Positions 2,467 through 27,999 of a stretch of DNA of 64,000 nucleotides are shown piece by piece. The stretch comes from an uncultured Pseudomonadota bacterium (GTDB taxonomy: Bacteria > Oederibacteriota > Muellerivitia > Muellerivitales > Muellerivitaceae): positions 800,001 to 864,000 of the forward strand of contig CAWIIP010000002.1 of the NCBI GenBank assembly GCA_963836235.1. Direction: 5' to 3'. Each line of letters opens with the position of its first letter. Positions within the stretch are counted from its first letter, which is position 1. The notes under the pieces were generated by a model. It was not told the origin of the DNA. It ran no database searches and saw nothing but the letters and a program-made list of their open reading frames with translations. The position numbers were made by a program, and so were the translations under genes.

Positions 2467-5400
2467 TTATCTCAAGACCGCAATGTTCCCTGTCCTCGAT
2501 TCACTGGTTTGGCCATCATCGACTTGCAGAAGATAAACATAAAGCCCACTGGCAACTGCTTGGTTGTTAGAGTTTTGAATATTCCACAAAAGGCTGTTTA
2601 ATCCCACCTGGCCTTCCACCATGGTTTGATAAATCTCCTCACCAGCCAAGCTGTAGAGTGTCAAGTGAACTTGGGCATTTCTTCCTAAATTAACCAAGAG
2701 CTTTACTGGTCCACCGTTTCGGGAAACATTAGGTGCCACAACAGCTGAAGCCAAGAGACCGGTGAAAGGCGTGGGAGTGATTGTTGGAGTTTGAGAAGGC
2801 GTTGGTGTGGTTGTTGATTGCCCCCCCAAGGTGGAACTCTTAATGCCCTTAAAAGCAGGCGAGGGAGAACTGGGATTCGCACATGTAAACCCAAGTACCC
2901 GAACACCATCATAATCGGTCACATATAACGTTCCATTGGAATACTGGAGGTCAATAGGCAAAAGATTATTTTGCTGCGAAGAAGAAGGAGGGGTGTTAGT
3001 CGTGAGGTTGGGTTGTCCTAAAACTTGATCGGCAGGGGGATCGGTGGTGCCTGTTGGAATATTGTTATAAACCACCACTCTGAAGTTCTGGCTGTCCGCA
3101 ATGTAAAGCTGGCAGTTATTCGAATAAACACCCGTTGGAAAATTCAAACCATTAGCGGCATTACTAGGGGCATTGGCAGTGAAGCTATTTTGGCCAACCA
3201 CGGCATCAGCTGCAACGTTAGTAGTACCTTCCGATAAGGTATCGATCCCCTGACCAGCATTATTGTAAACCAATACACGGTTATTCTGCGAATCCGCAAC
3301 GAATAAACTTCCATTCGATACCCACAAACCACTAGGTCCAAAAAGACCTTGGGGACCGCTCCCCTGAGACAGGCCATTTGTGAAACTCGATTGCCCAATC
3401 ACTTCATCGGCAGGCGCATTATTTGTCACCGGCAGCGAATTAAAAATCAAAACCCTATTGTTGCCTGTATCTGAGATGAATAATCGCTGACCATCATAAA
3501 ATACGCCGACAAAGTACTGCGCTTGATTAATGTTCAGGGTTCGAGGACCAACGGCAGACCCTTGATTCGCTTGACTATGGACCATATCGACTTGTCCGAT
3601 TTCAACATCCGCAGAACCATCGACTATAGGAAGGGTACTGATATTGTGATAGATGAGAACACGATTGTTATTTGTGTCCGACACAATCAAAGTCGTGCCA
3701 TTACTCCACACTCCTTCAGGCCCGGCCAACGTATTGGCGGTAACCGAAGCACTTAGGCCAGTTTGGTTCGATAGTGAACCCGTGAAGGATGATTGGCCAA
3801 GGACTTGTGTTGCACCTGGATCGTTGCCTGTAGGAACGGGATTGTAAAGCAATACACGGTTGTTTACTGGGTCCGATACAAACAAGTTATTCCCAGCCTG
3901 GAAAACACCCATTTGCGACCCTGCCAATGTTTGACTCGTCGGATTTGATAACCCTTGATTTACGGAGTTCGAAGTAAAATTCGGTTGACCGATGACCAAA
4001 CCGGAATTCTGGTTCGGTGTGAAGATACAAGCTGGTGGACAAGTTGGGCTTGGCGTTGCAGTTGGAGACGAGATCAATGTTAAGGTAAAAGTCGGTGTCA
4101 TGGACAACGCGGCTATTGTCGTCGCGGTTTCATTGGCCTGGGTAGTGGCGACTGCAATTTCCGTAGCCGTCCCAGCGGCTATGGCGGTCGAGGTGGCGTT
4201 GGCTTGGGCCGTTGCCGTCCCTTGAGCGGTCGCCGTGCTGTTGGCAGTCGGCGATGGTGTCGGGCTTATCGTGGGCGTAAAGGTTGGCGTAATCGTAAAG
4301 GTCCGGGTGGCCGTAAAGGTAGAGGTCGGCGTGAAAGTAACGGTGGGGGTGCAGGTGACTTGCTGGGCGCAGGGCGGCACGCCGGATTCGGGATCAGGAA
4401 CGGTAGAACTGACGAATTCCTGCAACAAATGCCCGTTGTTGTAAATCGCCATGTAAGGGTCATCGGCATAAGCCGTTCCGTTGCATTGAGTATAATCCAC
4501 AACCGGCGTATCCCAATTTCCGCAGGGAGTGCCACAACGGGTCATCCAGGCTTCCAATCCATCCACCCATCCGCCCACCGGAATAGCCCCCGAAATGCCA
4601 GCAAAGGTAAGCGTCGCCACCTGGTTTGCTATATGGGAGGAATCCGCTACGCAGGGAGGGCTCATGGCAACAGCCTGGGCTGAATTGGGGGGCGGGTTGA
4701 TAGTGCCTGCCGTCGAGCCTCCGGAATTATAAATGGTGCCATTGCTACCGGACCATTGGGCGGTAACCAGCCCGGACTGGTCAAACCACATCTTGATGGA
4801 CAAAGTGGAAAGAGTTACGGGCACTGAATCCTCATTGAGTATCTTGACCTTCCATCGGCGGCTCTGGCTGTCCGTCTGGGAACAATAGACCTGCAAATTA
4901 ACCTTAGGCGATGCAACCCCGCCATACCCACAAAGCGCAGGTGTCGGCGAAATAGTAGGCGTAAAAGTTGGGGTTGGTGTGAAAGCAGGGACAATTCCTG
5001 GATCACAGGAACTGCATGTATGACCGTTTGCATCAATCATGTTAATGATGAAATTCTTACCGGACAAAGCCGAAGTAAGGTCGCAAACCGTTACCGATAC
5101 AGTAACTGGAAGGCTACTTATCGTGAGACTAGTTGGAACTATTGAAAACGTATCCGTTCCAGTAGCCGGGGTTGCAGAAAGCGTTACTGTCACGCTAGAG
5201 CAACCAGCAGGCATCGTCCCGGTAATGGTTAAAGCCACCGAGGCGCAATTGGTTGATGTTAATCCTGTAATGCCGCAGGAAGTTGACCAACCAGTGCAAA
5301 CGCAACTTGTCCCAGGTGTTGCCGTGGAGGTTGGCGTCGCAGTGGGGGTAGCCGCAAACGTAGAGGTATAGGTTGGTGAAAGGGGCCCAAAGCCCTCGGT

Positions 5401-12768: not shown

Positions 12769-13203
12769 TTAAAGGGGAATATTGAAGGCATTAAGCCGCT
12801 TGAGGAAATGGGCGGGCGGTTCAATGATGACACCTTGGAAGGACATTAATGGCAGCAGGTGTTTCTTGTCCCCGGTGACGAGCACATCGCATTTTCCAAT
12901 GATTGCCACTTCCAAAACCCTGTCATCGGGTTGGTAGTTGATCGCGTTGATCCCGCCAGCCGGGACACAAACCGTGGAAGCGCTTCTGAACCGGTCTATC
13001 AAACGGCCGACTTTGTGCTCATGTTGGCCCATCTTATGGATGAGAACCCGGCGGACTTCCTCGAGGATATTGGGGCCGGTAACGTGGGAATAATCGAAGT
13101 CATAAAGCCGGTTTAAAATTTGGAGCGGGACGCCGCCATAAGCCACGCCGGAGATAATGACGTTGGCATCCAGGCAAACGGTTAAGGCGGACTTACCCGG
13201 CAA
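12769..13203 (-). CDS. PIN-domain toxin (VapC-like)
   Basis: 144 aa; VCLDANVIIS, DDRVLEVA and LVTGDKKHLL PIN acidic motifs; overlaps the upstream antitoxin. Confidence 0.9.
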   Translation of the reverse strand: MPGKSALTVCLDANVIISGVAYGGVPLQILNRLYDFDYSHVTGPNILEEVRRVLIHKMGQHEHKVGRLIDRFRSASTVCVPAGGINAINYQPDDRVLEVAIIGKCDVLVTGDKKHLLPLMSFQGVIIEPPAHFLKRLNAFNIPL

Positions 13204-13429
13204 ATGGGCCGCCGAAGGCCGCGGAAGTTATCTTGTGTTTTTTGACGTACTTGCTGGTGCTCGCGTGGAGCTCGAGAAGTTCTTTTTTGGCCTGGTAGCG
13301 GTCGAAAGCGTCCCTAAGAATCGCGGTAACGGTGCGGTGTTCTTTCTTGGCCGCGGCGAGGACTTCTTTGCCCATGTCGGCGGGGAACGCGAACGTTATC
13401 GTCTTTGGCATCTTCAATTTTGTTGTCAT
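13193..13429 (-). CDS. Ribbon-helix-helix (CopG-like) antitoxin
   Basis: 78 aa; KTITFAFP strand then helices AKKEHRTVTAILRDAFDRY; coupled to the PIN gene. Confidence 0.8.
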   Translation of the reverse strand: MTTKLKMPKTITFAFPADMGKEVLAAAKKEHRTVTAILRDAFDRYQAKKELLELHASTSKYVKKHKITSAAFGGPFAG

Positions 13430-13459
13430 GGGATCCCCAGGTTGAATTCTTAATACATC

Positions 13460-13528
13460 TTATGGGCCTCCATCGGCCAATTCAAGGAGAAGAAGAAAAG
13501 GAAAAAAAATATCGGCTAAAAACCTCAT
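13460..13528 (-). pseudogene. Remnant of a DUF5615 (PIN-like) toxin, only the first about 6 codons retained
   Basis: ATGA overlap with the DUF433 stop; reads MRFLAD, the usual start of DUF433 partner toxins, then unrelated sequence and a stop after 22 aa. Confidence 0.5.
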
Positions 13529-13752
13529 ACACCACTGCCCGTCAGGGGATGAACCTCCTCTTGGACCAGGGCGGCGGCATATTGGAGGGCTTGGTGGATA
13601 TCCTCCGCTTCAAGGTCGGGGTATTCCTGGAGTATTTCCTTCGTCGTCATGCCATCGGCAACCATGTTCACGACATGCGCAACGGTGATCCTCATTCCAC
13701 GGATACAAGCCTTCCCACCCATGATTTTCGGTTCAAAAGTAATCCTGTCCAT
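13525..13752 (-). CDS. DUF433 family antitoxin
   Basis: 75 aa RITFEPKIMGGKACIRGMRITV..EILQEYPDLEAEDI..AL.YAA; GGGAGG RBS. Confidence 0.9.
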   Translation of the reverse strand: MDRITFEPKIMGGKACIRGMRITVAHVVNMVADGMTTKEILQEYPDLEAEDIHQALQYAAALVQEEVHPLTGSGV

Positions 13753-14164
13753 TCACGGCCTCCCTTAGCCAAAAGCCTTGCGACGAAAACAGTTTAGCAC
13801 ACACGGCGCACTGAATGAATCCTGCCTATTATTGGGAATGAATTTGCCTATCAAAACCGGCTTGCCTTTTCACCATCCAACAAAAGTGACCCCCTTCAGG
13901 ACTAACTCAAGCCCGTCACAAAGTTCGTTTCTCTCGTTTCAGAACCACCGAAATTTTCCGCCTCGGCGCTTATCTTCACAGTCAGCTTCTATTCGAATCC
14001 CAAAACAGGCCAATTATTGTTCAAAAAATGTCTAAGGTTAAAGCGGAAACCTTTTTTCCCTAAAATTTTATTTGACGAAAAACATTTTTTGGAAATATCC
14101 TCCCCGCCATCAAGCTTCTTTAAAAATTTCATGGGCTTGAAATTTATTTTCTGGAGGAACGTTT

Positions 14165-15625
14165 ATGGAACCGATTTTGCTTCAAATCCCTGTCGCCAGG
14201 ATAAGACCCAACCCCAACAACTCCCGCCCAGTGATTACCCACGAAATGATCGAGATCAAGAAAGCCTCACTCGAGGCCGACGGCCAGTTGGACCCCATCA
14301 AGGTTCGACCCCTCACCCAGGAGGAAAAGGCTTCCGACCCGGAGCATGACTATGAGCTCATCGGGGGCCATATCCGGCTGGAGGCCGCCAAAAGCCTGGG
14401 CTGGGAAACCTTGAGGGCTTTGGTCTTTGCCTATACCCCCGCCGAAGCCGTCCTGCCTGGCATCATGGACAACAAGGGCCAGGACAGGCATTGGTTCTGT
14501 AAGTACCTGGATATCGAAGCCTTGTTGAAGGTATACCCGGACCTCTCCCAAAGACAGCTGGCCAACCGGCTGGAAATGAGCAAAACCGTCATAAACGAAG
14601 GTTTAAAACTATTAAAGTTCCTTAATCCATCCGCAAGGGAGTTGGTTGTCCGCACTGCGAACATAACAGAGCCTGCTACGACCTCAAGTGTCCGCAGTGC
14701 GGACACTACGGAACCTTCAAAAGCCTCAGATGTCCGCACTGCGGACACCATGGAGACGCCAGAAGACCCATGGGAGCTGGCGGAAGCCCCCGTCTATTGC
14801 CTCATGGACCTGGCGAACCCTCAAATGTCCTTGGAAGATATCCAGGACCTCATCTTAAAAGCCTTAAAAGTGGTCATTGACCGTCAAATGAGCGAATCCC
14901 AGGTGGAAAAACTGGTCGTTTGGATTGAAAAGGGCAACAGCCCCGAAAGTTTTGAGGATAAGGCTGAGCAGGTTCCTAACGAGGACCCCAACGACCCCCA
15001 TTCCTCTTATTGGACGGCCCTCCCCCCAAACGTCAAGGTAACCCGGACCAAAAAGGGATATGAAGTGCACGCCTCCCTGGCCCATAACGAGGGAGTACCG
15101 GTGGTTTATGGGATGTTGTCGAACCTTGAACACCTCAAACTGTTGTCGAAGGAACCCCATGACCCGCAATTCCGAAGCAAGCTGGAAGGGGTGATGGAGG
15201 AGGGGCGAAAAGCCCGGATCACCGCGAGGGAAGAGGCGGCCAAACAGGAAGCGGAACGCCAGGCGGCCCTTCAAGCGAAGGCCCAAGCCAAGGCCCAAAA
15301 GGCGGAGGCGGCAAAAGCAAAAAAAGAAGCATTATCTAAAACTGAGGTTGCTTCGTCGTCTTCGGCTTCCTATTCGGAAGCCACTCCTCGCAATGACGGA
15401 CAGCCCCAAGTTGGCCAGCCGAGTGCCGAAGCCGAAGCGGCTTCGGCCAATGACAGCAAAAAGGGATGGCTGAATCGAATCGCGGAAATGCTGAAGCAAA
15501 AGACCGGCATGGATGGGGGAGAGGTGGTGGAAGCCGTCGAAAGAAACCTTTGGAAGGACCTCAAATCGGCGGTCAATACCGTCATCAAGCAGATCTTTCG
15601 GCGATTCATTAAGAGAACCTTTTAG
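14165..15625 (+). CDS. ParB/RepB/Spo0J-family protein (orphan, no parA)
   Basis: IRPNPNNSR..GQLDPIKVR..YELIGGHIRLEAA ParB N-domain; HTH SQRQLANRLEMSKTVINEGLKLL; GGAGG RBS; long Ala/Lys coiled coil. Confidence 0.85.
   Translation: MEPILLQIPVARIRPNPNNSRPVITHEMIEIKKASLEADGQLDPIKVRPLTQEEKASDPEHDYELIGGHIRLEAAKSLGWETLRALVFAYTPAEAVLPGIMDNKGQDRHWFCKYLDIEALLKVYPDLSQRQLANRLEMSKTVINEGLKLLKFLNPSARELVVRTANITEPATTSSVRSADTTEPSKASDVRTADTMETPEDPWELAEAPVYCLMDLANPQMSLEDIQDLILKALKVVIDRQMSESQVEKLVVWIEKGNSPESFEDKAEQVPNEDPNDPHSSYWTALPPNVKVTRTKKGYEVHASLAHNEGVPVVYGMLSNLEHLKLLSKEPHDPQFRSKLEGVMEEGRKARITAREEAAKQEAERQAALQAKAQAKAQKAEAAKAKKEALSKTEVASSSSASYSEATPRNDGQPQVGQPSAEAEAASANDSKKGWLNRIAEMLKQKTGMDGGEVVEAVERNLWKDLKSAVNTVIKQIFRRFIKRTF
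14647..14747. repeat. Three 17-bp palindromes TGTCCGCA-N-TGCGGACA at 42-bp period inside the ParB-like ORF (parS-like)
   Basis: Copies at 14647-14663 (one mismatch), 14689-14705 and 14731-14747; spacers only loosely similar. Confidence 0.85.
15344..15399. repeat. REP/RPE-like palindromic element inserted in frame in the ParB-like gene
   Basis: GAGGTTGCTTCGTCG...CTCCTCGCAATGACGG ends, with internal hairpin GGCTTCC-tattc-GGAAGCC. Confidence 0.6.
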
Positions 15626-15642: not shown

Positions 15643-15679
15643 ACCACGACCTCTTAGCCTTTGGCCAAGAGGTCGTGGT
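15643..15679. terminator. Strong hairpin downstream of the ParB-like gene
   Basis: Perfect 13-bp inverted repeat ACCACGACCTCTT / AAGAGGTCGTGGT; T run a few nt downstream. Confidence 0.55.
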
Positions 15680-15788
15680 GAAATGTTTTTAAACAAGTAA
15701 CCGACTTTTCGCTTAATTTCCCCCACTCTTATAAAACACTTCACCGGAAAGGCCTCTTATAATAAGCCAATCCAATTTCCGGGTATTC

Positions 15789-23994: not shown

Positions 23995-26900
23995 TTACCG
24001 CAGGATGAGTAGTTTGAGGATGCTTCTTCCCTGGTTGGTTTGGACCACCACGTAATAAAGCCCGCTGGCCAAAGGTGTTCCCCTCTTATCCACTAAGGGA
24101 ATCGGTACGCTCGCTCCCGGCTGCACGTTTGAATAATTCAAGGTGGCCACTTTCCGGAAGGCAATCGTGAAGATCTCAATGCTCACGTCCGATGGCGAAG
24201 TCAAATCCGGATTCAACTGAACCGTTCCTCCGGTAGTGGGATTCGGATAAACCACCGGTTTGGCTGAAGGGGTTGAGGTTGGAGTGGCGGTAACCGTCGG
24301 CATCGGCGTAATGGTTTTAGTGGCTGTTGAGGTGACCGTCGAACTGGGGGTGTAAGTCGCCGTAGCGGCCACGATGGTGACCGTGACACCGGACACGGGC
24401 AATCCGGTAAAGAGAAGGGGCTGGCCGTTGCTTCCCGTGGCGTTCGTGGCGCTGAAGGAATAGCTCCCCACCGGTGACGACGAGGAGAAGTTCGCGGTGA
24501 CTTCGTAGGTCACGGCTCCATTGGCTCCCGGAATGACTCCGTTGAAGTTGAAGGTGGCGTTTGACCCGCTAAAGCTGGCCGTGGAAATGAGCGTTCCATT
24601 CGCGAAAAGATTGACCGAGGTGATCCCGCTGGGAAGGCTTCCCGTCCCGGTGAGGGTGATGCTGGTGAGCGTGACTGGGTTGCTGCTGGGATTGTTCATC
24701 TGGATCTGTTGGATGGGAACTCCGGAAGCGCCTGGGATTTGGGTGGAGCTACCCGGCGGGCTGGACCCTTGCGAGGCCGAAACCGTCACCGGCGTGGGGC
24801 TGAAAGTGGGTGTGACGGACGCCGTTGAGGTGGTGGTCGCCGTGGCGGTATTAACCAAGGTGTTGGTGGCGGTGGAAGTGGGAGTCATGGTGCTGGTCTT
24901 AGTCGGGGTTCCGGTGTTGATCAGGGTATTGGTAGCAGTCGCCGTGGAAGTTCGGGTAGGGCTGTTGGTCAACGTCTCCGTCGGAGTTAACGAAGAGGTG
25001 TAAGTCGGGCTGTTACTGGCGGTATTCGTGGTGGTGACGGTAGCCGTTGAAGTCGGCGTCCCGGTGTTAATGAGAGTATTGGTAACGGTAGCCGTGGAAG
25101 TGCGGGTGGGGCTATTGGTGGGTGAACCTGTCGGAGTCAATGAAGACGTGTAAGTTGGACTGTTGCTGGCCGTGTTCGTGGTGGTGACCGTGGCGGTTGA
25201 GGTCGGAGTTCCGGTATTGATGAGGGTATTGGTGGCCGTCGCCGTGGAAGTGCGAGTAGGGCTGTTGGTGGCTGTCCCAGTTGGAGTCAACGAAGAGGTG
25301 TAAGTCGGGCTATTGCTGGCGGTGTTCGTGGTGGTGACGGTAGCAGTCGAAGTTGGGGTTCCGGTGTTAATGAGAGTATTGGTAACGGTAGCCGTGGAAG
25401 TGCGAGTAGGGCTGTTGGTGGCTGTCCCAGTTGGAGTCAACGAAGAGGCGTAAGTCGGGCTATTGCTGGCGGTGTTCGTGGTGGTGACGGTAGCAGTCGA
25501 AGTTGGGGTTCCGGTGTTGATGAGAGTATTGGTAGCCGTTGCCGTGGAAGTGCGGGTGGGGCTGTTGGTGGGCGAACCGGTTGGGGTCAACGAAGAGGTG
25601 TAAGTCGGGCTGTTGCTGGCGGTGTTCGTGGTGGTTGCCGTGGCGGTACGAGTTGAGGTGGACGTTGCGGTTAAAGTCGCCGTATTAACCAGGGTATTGG
25701 TGGCCGTTGCCGTGAAAGTGCGGGTGGGGCTATTGGTGGGCGAACCTGTCGGAGTCAATGAAGACGTGTAAGTTGGGCTGTTACTCGCGGTATTCGTGGT
25801 CGTTGCCGTGGCGGTACGGGTTGCGGTGGAAGTTGAAGTATTCGTAGGGCTATTCGTTACGGTCTTCGTGGGCGTACTAGTCGCCGTAGTAGTGGCTGTG
25901 TTCGTCGTGGTACTGGTAACCGTACTAGTTGAAGTGTTCGCCGGGGTATTCGTGCGGGTTGTGGTTGGAGTAGAAGTCAATGTATTCGTGGGGCTGTTCG
26001 TTACGGTTTTCGTGGCCGTATTGGTGGCGCTATTCGTCGGGGTGCTGGTAGCGTTCAATGGAGTGTTTGTCGGGCTATTGGAAGGGGTAAAGGTGGGTGT
26101 TTTGGTCGCGGTGGGCGTTGCGCTATTGGTGGCGGTTTTCGTGGCCGTGCTGGTATTAACCACCGGCGTGTTCGTCGGGCTGCTGGTGGGTGTGGGACTG
26201 GGTGTGTTGCAAATAACCGTAATGGCAATGGTATTGCTGTTAACCGGTCCTCCTCCGGACCAAGTCGCCGTTCCCTTGTCGCTCACCACCTGGCAGGAAT
26301 CGCTGGCGTTGAAGGAATAAGCGACCACGCTAAAAGCGATCGGAACGCAATCCCCGCCTGGTAAATTGCTCACGACCCAAGTAATTGGAAATCCTGAAGT
26401 ATTCAGGGGATTGATCGTCACCGGCACACCCGAAACCGTGACCGCCCATTGGCTAAAATTGGGGCCGTCCTGGGACCAACTCAAGGGATTGGTGATATTG
26501 TCCACCACCGTAACGCCGTTGGCCGTCACCGATCCCGAGGCGTTGCAAACCGTGATGGTCATGGCGATGGCTGTTCCCGTTTCGGGATAACCGGACGTGG
26601 GCCCACCGGTCGTCTTAGTCAAGGTAATACTGGGAGGAACGGTTGTGGCGGTGGGAGTAAAGCTAGGGGTCGCGGTGAAGGTCTTGGTGGGTGTGCCGGT
26701 AGGCACCGGGCTTCCCGCCACGCAATTAGGGGTCGGCGTTTGGTTGAGTTGAGCCAGCCAAGTGGAAACCGGGGCTCCGTGATAGGAAGTGGTGGGGTAG
26801 CCACTGAAGCTCGTCAAGAGCGTCGGACTCACGTCCGAGCTGAAAGCCCAAGCCATTCCGGAATAAACATAATTATGGTCGTTGGTCCCGTTGAGCCAGG

Positions 26901-27924
26901 CGATGGTGCTGTTGTCCCATGCGACTCCGTCGGAAGAGGTCGCGCCGAATTCCTCGATGATAACAGCGTGGGCCGGGCTGGTGGCCGTGGCATCCGTGAT
27001 ATAGGTGTCCCATTGGGATCCGCCCGCCGGGTATCCCTTGCTGGAATAAACATGGGAGGAATAGAGGACGCCATTGCCCGAACCCGTATCGGTCAGGTCA
27101 TTGGCGGGTAGCCCCGTCAAGTCGAAAGCCCAGTTAAGTCCGCCCGCCACCACGATGTTATTGGCGCCCGCGTTGCGGACAGCGGTCAAGAGGGCCTGGA
27201 GGCCCGGAGTTGTGAAACCATTGGCCGCGCCACCGTCCCGCCAGATGGACCAGCTGACGTCGTGGGGCTCGTTATAGATGTCGAACATGACGGCGGGATT
27301 GTTGGCATAAGTGGAGGCCACCGAGGACCAGAAAGTGACGGCGTTCATGTCCGGCATATCTTGTTGGGCGGTAGCGCCACCCCATCCCGTTCCGCAAGGT
27401 GCTGTCGCGGTGCTTGAGGTTCCCGACCAATGGAGGTCCAAATCCAAATAGACATTGTTCGCGGAGCAATAGTTGATGACCGCCTGGATTTCCGCCCGAT
27501 AGGCGGTTTGATTGGGCGTCCCTCCTGAATTGGTACAGCCGAACCAAAAATCCTGGTTGATGGGGAACCGGACGCAGTTGGCGTGCCAAACGCTGACCGC
27601 CTCAGTGATGATCGAAACGTAATCCGTCATGGTGACGCCGCTAATAGTGGTCGTGGGACGGCCTGTGCCACCGTCACCCGTGGGGCTATATTCCATTCCG
27701 GAAACGTCCACACCCTTTAAGCGGACAGTACAACCGCCGCTGGCTGTAACAATCTGGTTACCCGAGATTTTAAGTTGAGCGGAAGTCGCGTGAACTTCGG
27801 AAGGAACCACCACAAAAAAGAGGAAAACCGCAAGGGACAAAAAGGACACAAAAACAAATCGAGCGAAAAACGTTTTTAAGTTTTCGCATAAAGTGAATTT
27901 CTGGATTTTAAAGGACCCGTTCAT
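23995..27924 (-). CDS. GH5 glycoside hydrolase (cellulase-like) with DUF11-like domain, Thr-rich repeats and C-terminal sorting domain
   Basis: LDLHW, FDIYNEPH (acid/base Glu), YSSHVY, IIEEFG (nucleophile Glu), MAWAF; C-terminal YPNP..IFTIAFRK..LASGLYY. Confidence 0.9.
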   Translation of the reverse strand: MNGSFKIQKFTLCENLKTFFARFVFVSFLSLAVFLFFVVVPSEVHATSAQLKISGNQIVTASGGCTVRLKGVDVSGMEYSPTGDGGTGRPTTTISGVTMTDYVSIITEAVSVWHANCVRFPINQDFWFGCTNSGGTPNQTAYRAEIQAVINYCSANNVYLDLDLHWSGTSSTATAPCGTGWGGATAQQDMPDMNAVTFWSSVASTYANNPAVMFDIYNEPHDVSWSIWRDGGAANGFTTPGLQALLTAVRNAGANNIVVAGGLNWAFDLTGLPANDLTDTGSGNGVLYSSHVYSSKGYPAGGSQWDTYITDATATSPAHAVIIEEFGATSSDGVAWDNSTIAWLNGTNDHNYVYSGMAWAFSSDVSPTLLTSFSGYPTTSYHGAPVSTWLAQLNQTPTPNCVAGSPVPTGTPTKTFTATPSFTPTATTVPPSITLTKTTGGPTSGYPETGTAIAMTITVCNASGSVTANGVTVVDNITNPLSWSQDGPNFSQWAVTVSGVPVTINPLNTSGFPITWVVSNLPGGDCVPIAFSVVAYSFNASDSCQVVSDKGTATWSGGGPVNSNTIAITVICNTPSPTPTSSPTNTPVVNTSTATKTATNSATPTATKTPTFTPSNSPTNTPLNATSTPTNSATNTATKTVTNSPTNTLTSTPTTTRTNTPANTSTSTVTSTTTNTATTTATSTPTKTVTNSPTNTSTSTATRTATATTTNTASNSPTYTSSLTPTGSPTNSPTRTFTATATNTLVNTATLTATSTSTRTATATTTNTASNSPTYTSSLTPTGSPTNSPTRTSTATATNTLINTGTPTSTATVTTTNTASNSPTYASSLTPTGTATNSPTRTSTATVTNTLINTGTPTSTATVTTTNTASNSPTYTSSLTPTGTATNSPTRTSTATATNTLINTGTPTSTATVTTTNTASNSPTYTSSLTPTGSPTNSPTRTSTATVTNTLINTGTPTSTATVTTTNTASNSPTYTSSLTPTETLTNSPTRTSTATATNTLINTGTPTKTSTMTPTSTATNTLVNTATATTTSTASVTPTFSPTPVTVSASQGSSPPGSSTQIPGASGVPIQQIQMNNPSSNPVTLTSITLTGTGSLPSGITSVNLFANGTLISTASFSGSNATFNFNGVIPGANGAVTYEVTANFSSSSPVGSYSFSATNATGSNGQPLLFTGLPVSGVTVTIVAATATYTPSSTVTSTATKTITPMPTVTATPTSTPSAKPVVYPNPTTGGTVQLNPDLTSPSDVSIEIFTIAFRKVATLNYSNVQPGASVPIPLVDKRGTPLASGLYYVVVQTNQGRSILKLLILR
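24900..25830 (-). repeat. Intragenic tandem repeat of about 6 units of 150 bp (50 aa, Thr/Ser/Asn/Pro-rich)
   Basis: Anchor TAAGTYGG recurs at 25001, 25151, 25301, 25451, 25601 and 25769; peptide NTASNSPTYTSSLTPTG..TNSPTRT. Confidence 0.9.
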
Positions 27925-27999
27925 GGTGTCCCCTTTTTGAGATGACTACTTTTCCAACCGGGTAAATTATTTGTAAAACACCCGCTGATTTTAATGAAA

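Follow-up and report, generated by a model that had tools for sequence, protein, structure and literature searches.

What do three closely similar palindromes, set exactly 42 bp apart within a protein-coding gene, do there? The question is raised by P0001, a gene for a ParB/Noc-like protein in a 64,000-nucleotide stretch of DNA (the window) from an uncultured bacterium of the Muellerivitaceae (contig CAWIIP010000002.1, positions 800,001 to 864,000). The palindromes are taken here to be functional sites at the level of DNA, most likely private parS-like docking sites of the ParB/Noc-type protein that the gene itself encodes. This reading is given a probability of roughly 0.7. That the encoded protein is the reader of the palindromes is inferred from sequence.

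The motif has the form TGTCCGCA-N-TGCGGACA and is present in three copies within the open reading frame (ORF) at 14165-15625, with starts 42 bp apart. All offsets are counted from an anchor, the end of the helix that follows the helix-turn-helix (HTH) of the protein. The gene and its palindromes are as follows.

14165-15625, plus strand: ParB/Noc-like gene P0001, 486 amino acids, recognised as an ORF and by domain, profile and fold matches.
14647-14663, unstranded: palindrome copy 1, TGTCCGCACTGCGAACA, with one mismatch in the right arm; its centre is at anchor +4, the commonest position in the family.
14687-14707, unstranded: palindrome copy 2, AGTGTCCGCAGTGCGGACACT, perfect over 21 bp with 10-nt arms and a 17-nt core at 14689-14705; centre at anchor +46.
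14731-14747, unstranded: palindrome copy 3, TGTCCGCACTGCGGACA, perfect with 8-nt arms; centre at anchor +88.

The first-pass annotation of the window had placed three copies at 14647, 14689 and 14731, 42 bp apart. This is confirmed, with the correction that copy 1 is imperfect. The pattern TGTCCGCANTGCGGACA, with up to two mismatches allowed, matched exactly three places in the window and none in 100 dinucleotide shuffles. When the three units are compared, 15-16 of the 17 nucleotides of the core are identical and 10-14 of the remaining 25. The copies are translated in the frame of the ORF as VRTAN, VRSAD and VRTAD. The opening T of each palindrome is the third base of a different codon (GTT, AGT and GAT) and is constant across all three, therefore the peptide does not explain its conservation. 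Parts of the gene are covered by DNA contigs from four metagenome runs, of soil or unspecified origin, and no differences were found in the array where it is covered (copy 3 is never spanned whole). Tandem Repeats Finder did not score the array. A CRISPR-like array was considered and rejected: the repeat measures only 17 bp, likeness between the ‘spacers’ is 40-56% and a conserved ORF encloses the whole.

The palindrome is a feature of the family and not of this gene only. Modules of related proteins were anchored with a hidden Markov model (HMM) on the end of the conserved ‘...LNPxARxL’ helix, so that detection of the palindromes hangs on this one HMM. A window of -45 to +180 nt of the HTH end was searched for perfect palindromes in which arms of 7 nt or more flank a single central nucleotide, and windows of the same size taken upstream and downstream within each gene served as controls. 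A perfect palindrome was present in 74 of 106 non-identical modules from 22 genomes, compared with 0/106 upstream and 5/104 downstream. The first sample of 65 non-identical modules (one more was dropped at a contig end) gave 43 with a palindrome, 0/65 upstream and 4/64 downstream. The second, fetched independently, comprised 42 new loci with 41 non-identical modules and added two taxonomic families, f15 and f18; it gave 31/41, with 0/41 upstream and 1/40 downstream. The samples are kin, so these counts overstate the independence of the modules. Arms of 7 nt or more are reached by 2.25% of random 225-nt windows of this genome.

Arm lengths in the family range from 7 to 21 nt, and 73 of the 74 palindromes are centred on a second codon position. 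The sequence differs from gene to gene, with at least 40 different sequences seen, while position and phase are kept across genera and four taxonomic families. The suspicion that homologues would carry an intragenic palindrome after the HTH was therefore correct, and in some it takes the form of a 42-nt-phased array. Nine further modules of the first sample carry a palindrome with a 3-nt centre. Degenerate palindromes (7-9 of 10 pairs) at +4 or +37 were found in 8 of 14 re-examined first-sample modules that lack a perfect one of the 1-nt-centre type (arms of 7 nt or more). No palindrome was found in two canonical ParBs or in seven second modules of the ‘CHEG...GGYRF’ type in the first sample.

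These second modules belong to family proteins with two tandem ParB-like modules (L012, L057, L058, L060, L073, L139, L143 and L144). The palindrome is usually in the first module (it is absent or merely degenerate in L012, L058 and L139). The second is marked by ‘CHEG..D.GGYRF’, with a variant in L057 and L139, and has no palindrome.

Changes within the palindrome indicate the level at which selection works. With the centre fixed at anchor +4 in all 65 first-sample modules, and with no prior choice of palindromes, Watson-Crick pairs make up 67% of pairs 1-10. A shift of the partner by 1-3 nt lowers the value to 23-38%. All four types of pair are found at most positions of the palindrome. Two paralogues of the P0001 genome differ by symmetric double changes, ...TTCCGA.TCGGAA... 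versus ...TTCGGA.TCCGAA..., which alter the peptide from IIPIRNN to IIRIPNN. Between L080 and L105 an A to G change is paired with T to C and replaces Ser by Pro. Across 13 orthologue pairs from six groups, which are not independent of each other, codons for the same residue are identical in 76 of 79 cases within the palindrome and in 282 of 504 outside it. Selection thus acts on the DNA at the palindromes, as the first-pass annotation had suggested: compensatory changes alter the peptide and synonymous sites are frozen. Homologues that kept the VR(T/S)AD peptide with non-palindromic codons would have refuted it; in fact the peptide is not kept, and what is kept there is palindromy, with differing sequences.

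Arrays at the 42-nt period were found in six other genes in five arrangements, with motifs that differ between genes. L035/L036 and L061 have three copies, and L039, L112 and L113 have two. Among the units of P0001, L035, L039 and L061, 14-17 of the 17 core nucleotides are identical and 5-14 of the 25 in the spacers, except for one recent duplicate with 23/25. The centre base switches between complements only, as C/G in P0001, L039 and L061 and as CCA/TGG in L035. Of 32 palindromes that lie off +4, 20 are centred a multiple of 21 nt beyond +4 (+25, +46, +67 or +88), where 1 in 7 would be expected for in-frame offsets; this count is not phylogenetically independent. The smallest length that combines whole codons with whole turns of 10.5 bp is 21, and 42 would be the smallest workable spacing for sites of 17-23 bp.

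In the main, the palindromes do not occur outside their own genes. The scan of the 3.97-Mb genome found the P0001 motif in six places, three in this gene and three in a duplicate on contig C4, and it is thus confined to the gene and its copy. Palindromes of five other paralogues in the genome were also searched; three have no match outside their own gene when up to one mismatch is allowed (full arms or 8-nt core arms). In other genomes, one site of G025 and one of G081 were found only in their own genes, and a second G081 site had one extra copy, in a decayed fragment of a family gene.

A link between site and reader was also sought by covariation, with the columns that overlap the palindrome left out. 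The distance between half-sites correlates with that between recognition-helix columns (r=0.365; partial Mantel r=0.30 given the N-domain, p=3e-4), which was a check proposed by the first-pass annotation. There is no such correlation with N-domain columns 1-50 (r=0.09; r=0.05 for the N-domain given the HTH). The covariation supports a link between site and reader. A search for residue-to-base correspondences, by per-column mutual information and in a table of 30 ‘PLLN’ members, gave hints only: Arg versus Gly in the recognition helix accompanies CGG versus CCG, and no code is claimed.

The window segment 14036-15310 has a duplicate on contig C4 with 99.1% identity; it takes in the promoter-like site, N-domain, HTH, array and dimer region. 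There are 11 differences, none within the array, and the C-terminal parts diverge past the duplicated stretch. The genome has about 10 dispersed paralogues of 470-780 aa in addition to a canonical ParB. Seven different palindromes are distributed across nine of the roughly 10 loci, and two loci have none. No shared neighbours were found among the 10 paralogues, four of which have a hydrophobic membrane-span-like segment. The description of the gene as an orphan holds in the sense that it has no ParA, but it is not alone, given its duplicate and paralogues.

The family is ParB/Noc-like and restricted to a lineage. A survey was made of 99 genomes of the phylum, 31 of them in the taxonomic family of the window and 68 others. 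At E<1e-40 the family profile matched 18 of the 31 (G000 counted) and 3 of the 68, with up to 14 matches per genome. The other surveyed genomes, including one of the same genus that is 80% complete, had a canonical-length ParB alone or nothing at this threshold. P0001 had 203 matches at E<=1e-10 among 1.84 billion representative proteins. A homologous-protein search returned six matches, of which the nearest full-length ones, P0003 and P0007 (about 37% identity), lack the repeat and have a short loop. A pattern search of genome contigs with P0001 alone gave 35 pattern hits, none of which was confirmed, and a protein atlas gave only generic ParB clusters, with no taxon or name for the family.

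Decayed members of the family were also observed. The gene at G000 C4:607506-608920 is split into frames of 96 and 445 aa, and L051 has an in-frame stop directly after its palindrome. A fragment of 64 aa, L145 (G081 C9:673864), retains a perfect palindrome.

The protein resembles ParB and Noc in its N-domain and throughout its DNA-binding domain. P0001 matches Pfam ParB_N (PF02195) over residues 6-103 with 33.8 bits (gathering score 26.3). A profile of 39 relatives matched Spo0J (1vz0, E=1.5e-30) and Noc (7nfu, E=4.7e-30) in the PDB, and Spo0J, Noc and ParB chains in general at 1e-20 to 1e-30. The Noc alignment runs over profile positions 1-219 and chain residues 19-217 and covers the entire DNA-binding domain. 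The AlphaFold model has a predicted local distance difference test (pLDDT) score of 81.6, and the best solved folds found by Foldseek were Noc (rank 1) and ParB, with a template modelling (TM) score of 0.61 for the target. Both profile and Foldseek place a ParB-type HTH DNA-binding domain after the N-domain. The parts of the gene, with its putative signals, are listed below.

14072-14101, plus strand: promoter-like site TTGACG-18-TATCCT, 64 nt 5′ of the ATG, found by consensus scan only and lying within the C4-duplicated stretch 14036-15310.
14180-14473, plus strand: ParB N-terminal (CTPase-fold) domain, residues 6-103, with Box I as IRPNPNNSRP, Box II as GHIR and Box III as DN.
14519-14650, plus strand: HTH plus the next helix, residues 119-162, ending ...SKTVINEGLKLLKFLNPSAREL; the end of this helix is the anchor.
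14651-14782, plus strand: array-encoded loop of about 44 residues (163-206) in three 14-aa units, predicted to be disordered (pLDDT about 47-51).
14783-14929, plus strand: remainder of the ParB/Noc DNA-binding domain, with helices in residues 207-255, from profile and model.
14999-15229, plus strand: predicted homodimer interface, residues 279-355 (beta-hairpin, helix and start of the long helix), from structure prediction.
15167-15337, plus strand: modelled long helix, residues 335-391, rich in Ala, Lys, Gln and Glu.
15337-15462, plus strand: low-confidence segment with a dispersed repeat translated in frame (...EVASSSSASYSEATPRND...), residues about 392-433.
15569-15622, plus strand: C-terminal 18 residues, AVNTVIKQIFRRFIKRTF, a predicted cationic amphipathic helix with net charge +5 and hydrophobic moment 0.49.
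15643-15690, plus strand: terminator-like hairpin with a 13-bp stem and an inner 3-bp stem, followed by a T-rich tail (-28.4 kcal/mol, z=-6.1).

In canonical ParB and Noc the position of the array-encoded loop, between two DNA-binding-domain helices, is taken by a loop only a few residues long. Within the N-domain, the GxxR of Box II is kept as GHIR, and G68 and R71 are invariant among 39 aligned family members. The full GERRxRA is not kept, as His replaces Glu and Ile replaces Arg. Box III does not read ENLQR in P0001 but IMDNKGQD, and its sole invariant residue in the family is Asn N103. As Box II is GHIR and not GERR, and Box III is DN and not ENLQR, the ‘CTPase’ label is inferred from motifs. 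The ParA-activating motif of ParB, LG(R/K)GL (10.1101/2025.10.10.680097), is absent from the N-terminus of P0001, which starts MEPILLQIPVARIRPN. The canonical ParB of the same genome, a protein of 286 aa, has LGRGL, GERRYRAA and ENLQR.

The homodimer prediction scored 0.70, compared with 0.00 for the best of three controls; contacts agreed by at least 95% between runs and the pLDDT of the partner was at least 61. Among proteins of solved structure, the mark set for this score was attained in 20 of 30 pairs and in 1 of 23 single chains, although the value may partly mirror resemblance to solved ParB C-terminal dimers. The amphipathic C-terminus is a possible contact for a membrane or a partner, and the gene looks monocistronic.

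In the mechanism proposed for the preferred reading, each 17-21-bp palindrome would be bound symmetrically by a dimer of the protein. Copy 1 would be at the ancestral position, in the codons directly after the HTH, and copies 2 and 3 would have arisen by expansion of a 42-nt (14-codon) unit within a tolerant disordered loop. Since 42 bp is both four helical turns and a whole number of codons, three dimers would lie on one face of the helix with the reading frame kept. Three sites on the same face would load several dimers cooperatively, and the GxxR N-domain may gate closure and sliding of the clamp as in ParB, Noc, KorB and BisD. Within the gene this could lead to autoregulation or a roadblock; in addition or instead, the variable C-terminal part could anchor the locus. 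The first-pass proposal, a ParA-independent CTPase clamp that loads on its own gene for autoregulation, for silencing of neighbours or as a Noc-like organiser, is thereby supported in part. Candidate tethers are the cationic amphipathic tail of P0001 and the membrane-span-like segments of the four paralogues. Because site and reader are one gene, duplication would copy both; it would give a self-contained pair able to drift in specificity, and paralogues would therefore carry different sites.

Several observations weigh against the reading of the palindromes as private docking sites. About 6 of the 65 first-sample modules have no recognisable palindrome, including the same-genome paralogues C1:312553 and C4:281168. 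In the second sample, 10 of 41 modules have no palindrome of the searched kind, perfect around a 1-nt centre with arms of 7 nt or more (the check for degenerate forms covered the first sample); one of these, L113, has two copies with a 3-nt centre. The site is therefore not indispensable. A single private site within its own gene points to no obvious cellular function. Hydrolysis of CTP by P0001 is doubtful, as judged by a Box II without the Glu and one Arg of GERR and by the reduced Box III. Half-site and helix correlate modestly, and common descent and within-gene linkage confound the correlation, which is why it falls short of proof. Template-switch mutation can perfect palindromes without selection, and the toggling of the centre between C and G and the change of CCA to TGG in L035 fit such a process. 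Copies 2 and 3, as RNA, can pair in a long stem (-55 kcal/mol, z=-4.8).

The privacy of the sites also has exceptions. For the other two of the five paralogue palindromes searched, the 17-nt core has one additional match each, at C2:2047126 and at the AT-rich C2:1426427. At C2:2047126 the core of the paralogue E palindrome (TGTTTCCTCAGGAAACA) lies within a GC-clamped hairpin followed by a T-run, which is terminator-like; this match could be chance or a second site. That at C2:1426427 is the AT-rich core of the paralogue D site and a possible extragenic look-alike. A third case is TGTTCGCACTGCGAACA at C2:1300117 (locus L146, about 3118-3134), a perfect palindrome one symmetric change from the P0001 motif. 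It lies in a divergent intergenic region of roughly 600 bp, directly after four copies (three direct, one inverted) of ATTGCGACATAA, and is either a chance look-alike or an extragenic target.

Among the alternatives, the one that survives best, though improbable, accepts the palindromes as real DNA elements and assigns them to another reader. This could be a shared host factor, a recombinase or transposase that recognises a hairpin site, or a cruciform or replication-pause element in a tolerant loop. In its favour, binding of the protein to its own gene is a presumed step, and the genome has other dispersed palindromic repeats translated in frame, as at 15337-15462. The flips of the centre base also hint at events mediated by hairpins or cruciforms. 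However, a shared reader would need one motif, whereas the sequences seen are many and different. The sites are not dispersed but remain with their own genes, and they are confined to one codon position in this HTH family, with none in canonical ParBs or in the second modules.

It is a fairly remote prospect that the palindromes have no function, and that a neutral disordered loop gathers tandem 42-nt duplications whose quasi-palindromes are perfected by template switching. The loop is indeed disordered and varies in length, some members have no palindrome and the centre base flips to its complement, all of which this explanation would accommodate. It does not account for a position and phase kept across genera and four taxonomic families, nor for the frozen synonymous sites. 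Cores have stayed alike while spacers diverged, and palindromes at the test position far exceed those of the same-gene controls.

Remoter still is the explanation that the palindromes act as RNA, with mRNA hairpins or the stem of copies 2 and 3 tuning translation, transcript stability or pausing of the ribosome during folding of the DNA-binding domain. Every palindrome can fold as RNA, the array region does so at -55.1 kcal/mol (with the z of -4.8 noted above), and a regulatory mRNA structure has been reported at the 5′ end of Caulobacter parB (PMC13371061). However, the pair that adjoins the 1-nt centre is complementary in 41 of 49 detected palindromes, which is impossible in a hairpin, and G:T or T:G accounts for 33 of 213 mismatches compared with a chance expectation of 17%, so that G:U-compatible mismatches are not in excess. 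Pairing up to the centre and the lack of such an excess are better explained by a symmetric site in duplex DNA than by an RNA hairpin. In addition, the paralogue sequences are wholly different although their supposed task would be identical, and the half-sites follow the recognition helix.

Scarcely credible is a signal in the peptide or in another frame, whether selection for VR(T/S)AD or a zinc ribbon made by frameshifting: in the -1 frame three CPxCG-like knuckles do follow one another at 14-residue intervals (CPHCEH..CPQCGH..CPHCGH), but that frame is closed by a TAA at 14623-14625 with no start codon or slippery heptamer before the first knuckle, on which grounds the zinc ribbon or frameshift was rejected, while homologues share palindromy and neither the peptide nor CxxC in any frame, and the opening T holds its place as third base of three different codons.

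Private docking of each protein at its own gene thus remains the favoured reading, and a bolder version of it can be put forward as an outside chance. In this version the palindromes are orthogonal ‘address tags’: each paralogue would bind the palindrome of its own gene only, load in cis co-translationally and tether or mark its locus through its C-terminal part. Equally speculative is the idea, drawn by analogy with ParB and Noc, that the palindrome-encoded loop between two DNA-contacting helices couples site and reader. The palindrome encodes a loop within the DNA-binding domain, so a mutation of the site would change the reader simultaneously. If true, this self-referential coupling could drive rapid co-diversification of site and specificity among paralogues.

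The private-site reading has wider consequences. The cognate site could be read from each gene, and dozens to hundreds of natural protein/site pairs would form a dataset for the recognition code of ParB. The family would also be a source of mutually orthogonal ParB/site pairs, as used for live-cell labelling of DNA loci. It would illustrate how a DNA-binding protein and its site can duplicate and diverge as a unit. It also illustrates how a coding sequence yields to a DNA signal, so that dyad symmetry dictates the variation of the peptides. The 42-bp period offers a rule for intragenic arrays of sites, namely whole codons combined with whole helical turns. The question that is raised is what benefit a cell draws from at least 10 ParB-like proteins with single private addresses, some of them membrane-anchored.

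Around P0001, no ParA, Rep or integrase domain was found among the 16 ORFs scanned, from 318 to 33789, in agreement with the first-pass remark that no parA, rep or integrase is nearby. A mobile-element context was rejected on the same absence of integrase and Rep and on the lack of conserved neighbours among the 10 paralogues. The neighbouring genes encode secreted proteases, TPR proteins, glycoside hydrolases and a PIN-domain protein. The last of these (VapC-like) is upstream at 12769-13203 on the minus strand. Three small overlapping ORFs without a family match lie at 13157-14035, and the duplication shared with C4 starts directly after the last one, at 14036.

Other repeats are present in the window. 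The repeat at 15337-15462 resembles a REP-type element tolerated within a coding sequence. Its word CCTCGCAATGAC has 19 occurrences in the genome compared with about 0.5 expected, and contigs of other contexts match this piece alone, with unrelated flanks. A similar peptide is present in the distant homologues P0003 and P0007, and similar translated repeats are found in other paralogues, e.g. ...GPQLEASAQ.... A GH5 cellulase gene (1309 aa, 23995-27924, minus strand) contains imperfect tandem repeats of about 150 bp (80-84% identity) at 24901-25835, related to C2:173778-174193. Its 5′ part is overlapped by a 1035-bp stretch, 26943-27977, that is 100% identical to C2:922691-923725.

It is documented that a parS can lie inside the gene of its reader, and that odd palindromes can be intragenic. 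The site parS-359 sits within the parB (spo0J) gene of B. subtilis (PMC4442127). An 18-bp inverted repeat in the coding sequence of parT, on SCP2, has been identified as a loading site by chromatin immunoprecipitation sequencing (ChIP-seq) and biolayer interferometry (BLI) (PMC12260392). The BisD site of ICEclc, bisS, is an odd palindrome of the form 11+n+11 and is found inside genes (PMC12409273). ParB-type clamps have been described as a general class of nucleotide-gated DNA switches, with orphan ParBs common and mostly unexplained (10.1101/2025.10.10.680097). In the literature searched, which included few subscription journals, there was no account of a chromosomal multi-paralogue ParB/Noc-like family with private sites. 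Within the same coverage, neither a fixed codon position of such a site nor 42-nt in-frame arrays were described.

The ParB-parS system of B. subtilis shares with P0001 a ParB N-domain, an HTH domain and a palindromic site in the coding sequence of the reader. Canonical ParB has a ParA partner, the LG(R/K)GL motif and an even 16-bp parS shared by several origin-proximal sites, with one copy of the gene per replicon. The P0001 family has instead no ParA motif, and its odd 17-21-bp palindromes are private, lie at one codon position and differ among about 10 paralogues. The site of P0001, 17-21 bp long around a 1-nt centre and with another core, is not a 16-bp parS of the TGTTNCACGTGNAACA type, the canonical consensus as quoted in PMC12409273. 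Unlike canonical type-I ParABS systems, P0001 has neither LG(R/K)GL nor a ParA-type domain in the 16 neighbouring ORFs.

Noc and its binding sites (NBS) provide the best structural and profile match, and share with P0001 the orphan status without ParA and a possible membrane-binding amphipathic helix. The NCBIfam model for Noc (TIGR04285) scored 47.5 bits with a cutoff of 315, therefore P0001 is not a Noc. Noc has an N-terminal amphipathic helix and roughly 70 NBS scattered along the chromosome, whereas the candidate helix of P0001 is C-terminal and its site private.

The ParT-parS system of the Streptomyces plasmid SCP2 is similar in having its site inside the reader gene, as is presumed for P0001. 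ParT is without a CTPase-type N-domain, works with ParA and is a single plasmid gene, while the P0001 family keeps the ParB N-domain and is chromosomal, multi-copy and without ParA.

BisD-bisS and KorB-OB of RK2 are orphan-type ParB CTP clamps that act on transcription, and bisS is an odd palindrome as in P0001; KorB (8qa8) is a weaker profile match, at 2.6e-11. Their sites, 2-12 per element, are at other genes or promoters of the mobile element, and these systems have neither expansion into paralogues nor a fixed intragenic position.

SopB-sopC of the F plasmid offers a parallel to the array itself. In sopC, which is extragenic, 12 units of 43 bp each carry a palindrome bound by SopB and serve partition driven by SopA. 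The array of P0001 shares the trait of tandem units in helical phase with one palindrome each (three at 42 bp) and a period near four helical turns. Partition of the sopC type with a ParA-type ATPase is not indicated, as there is no ParA nearby and no ParA-binding motif. The units of the P0001 family, one to three in number and exactly 42 nt long, lie instead inside their own ORF, with the frame kept.

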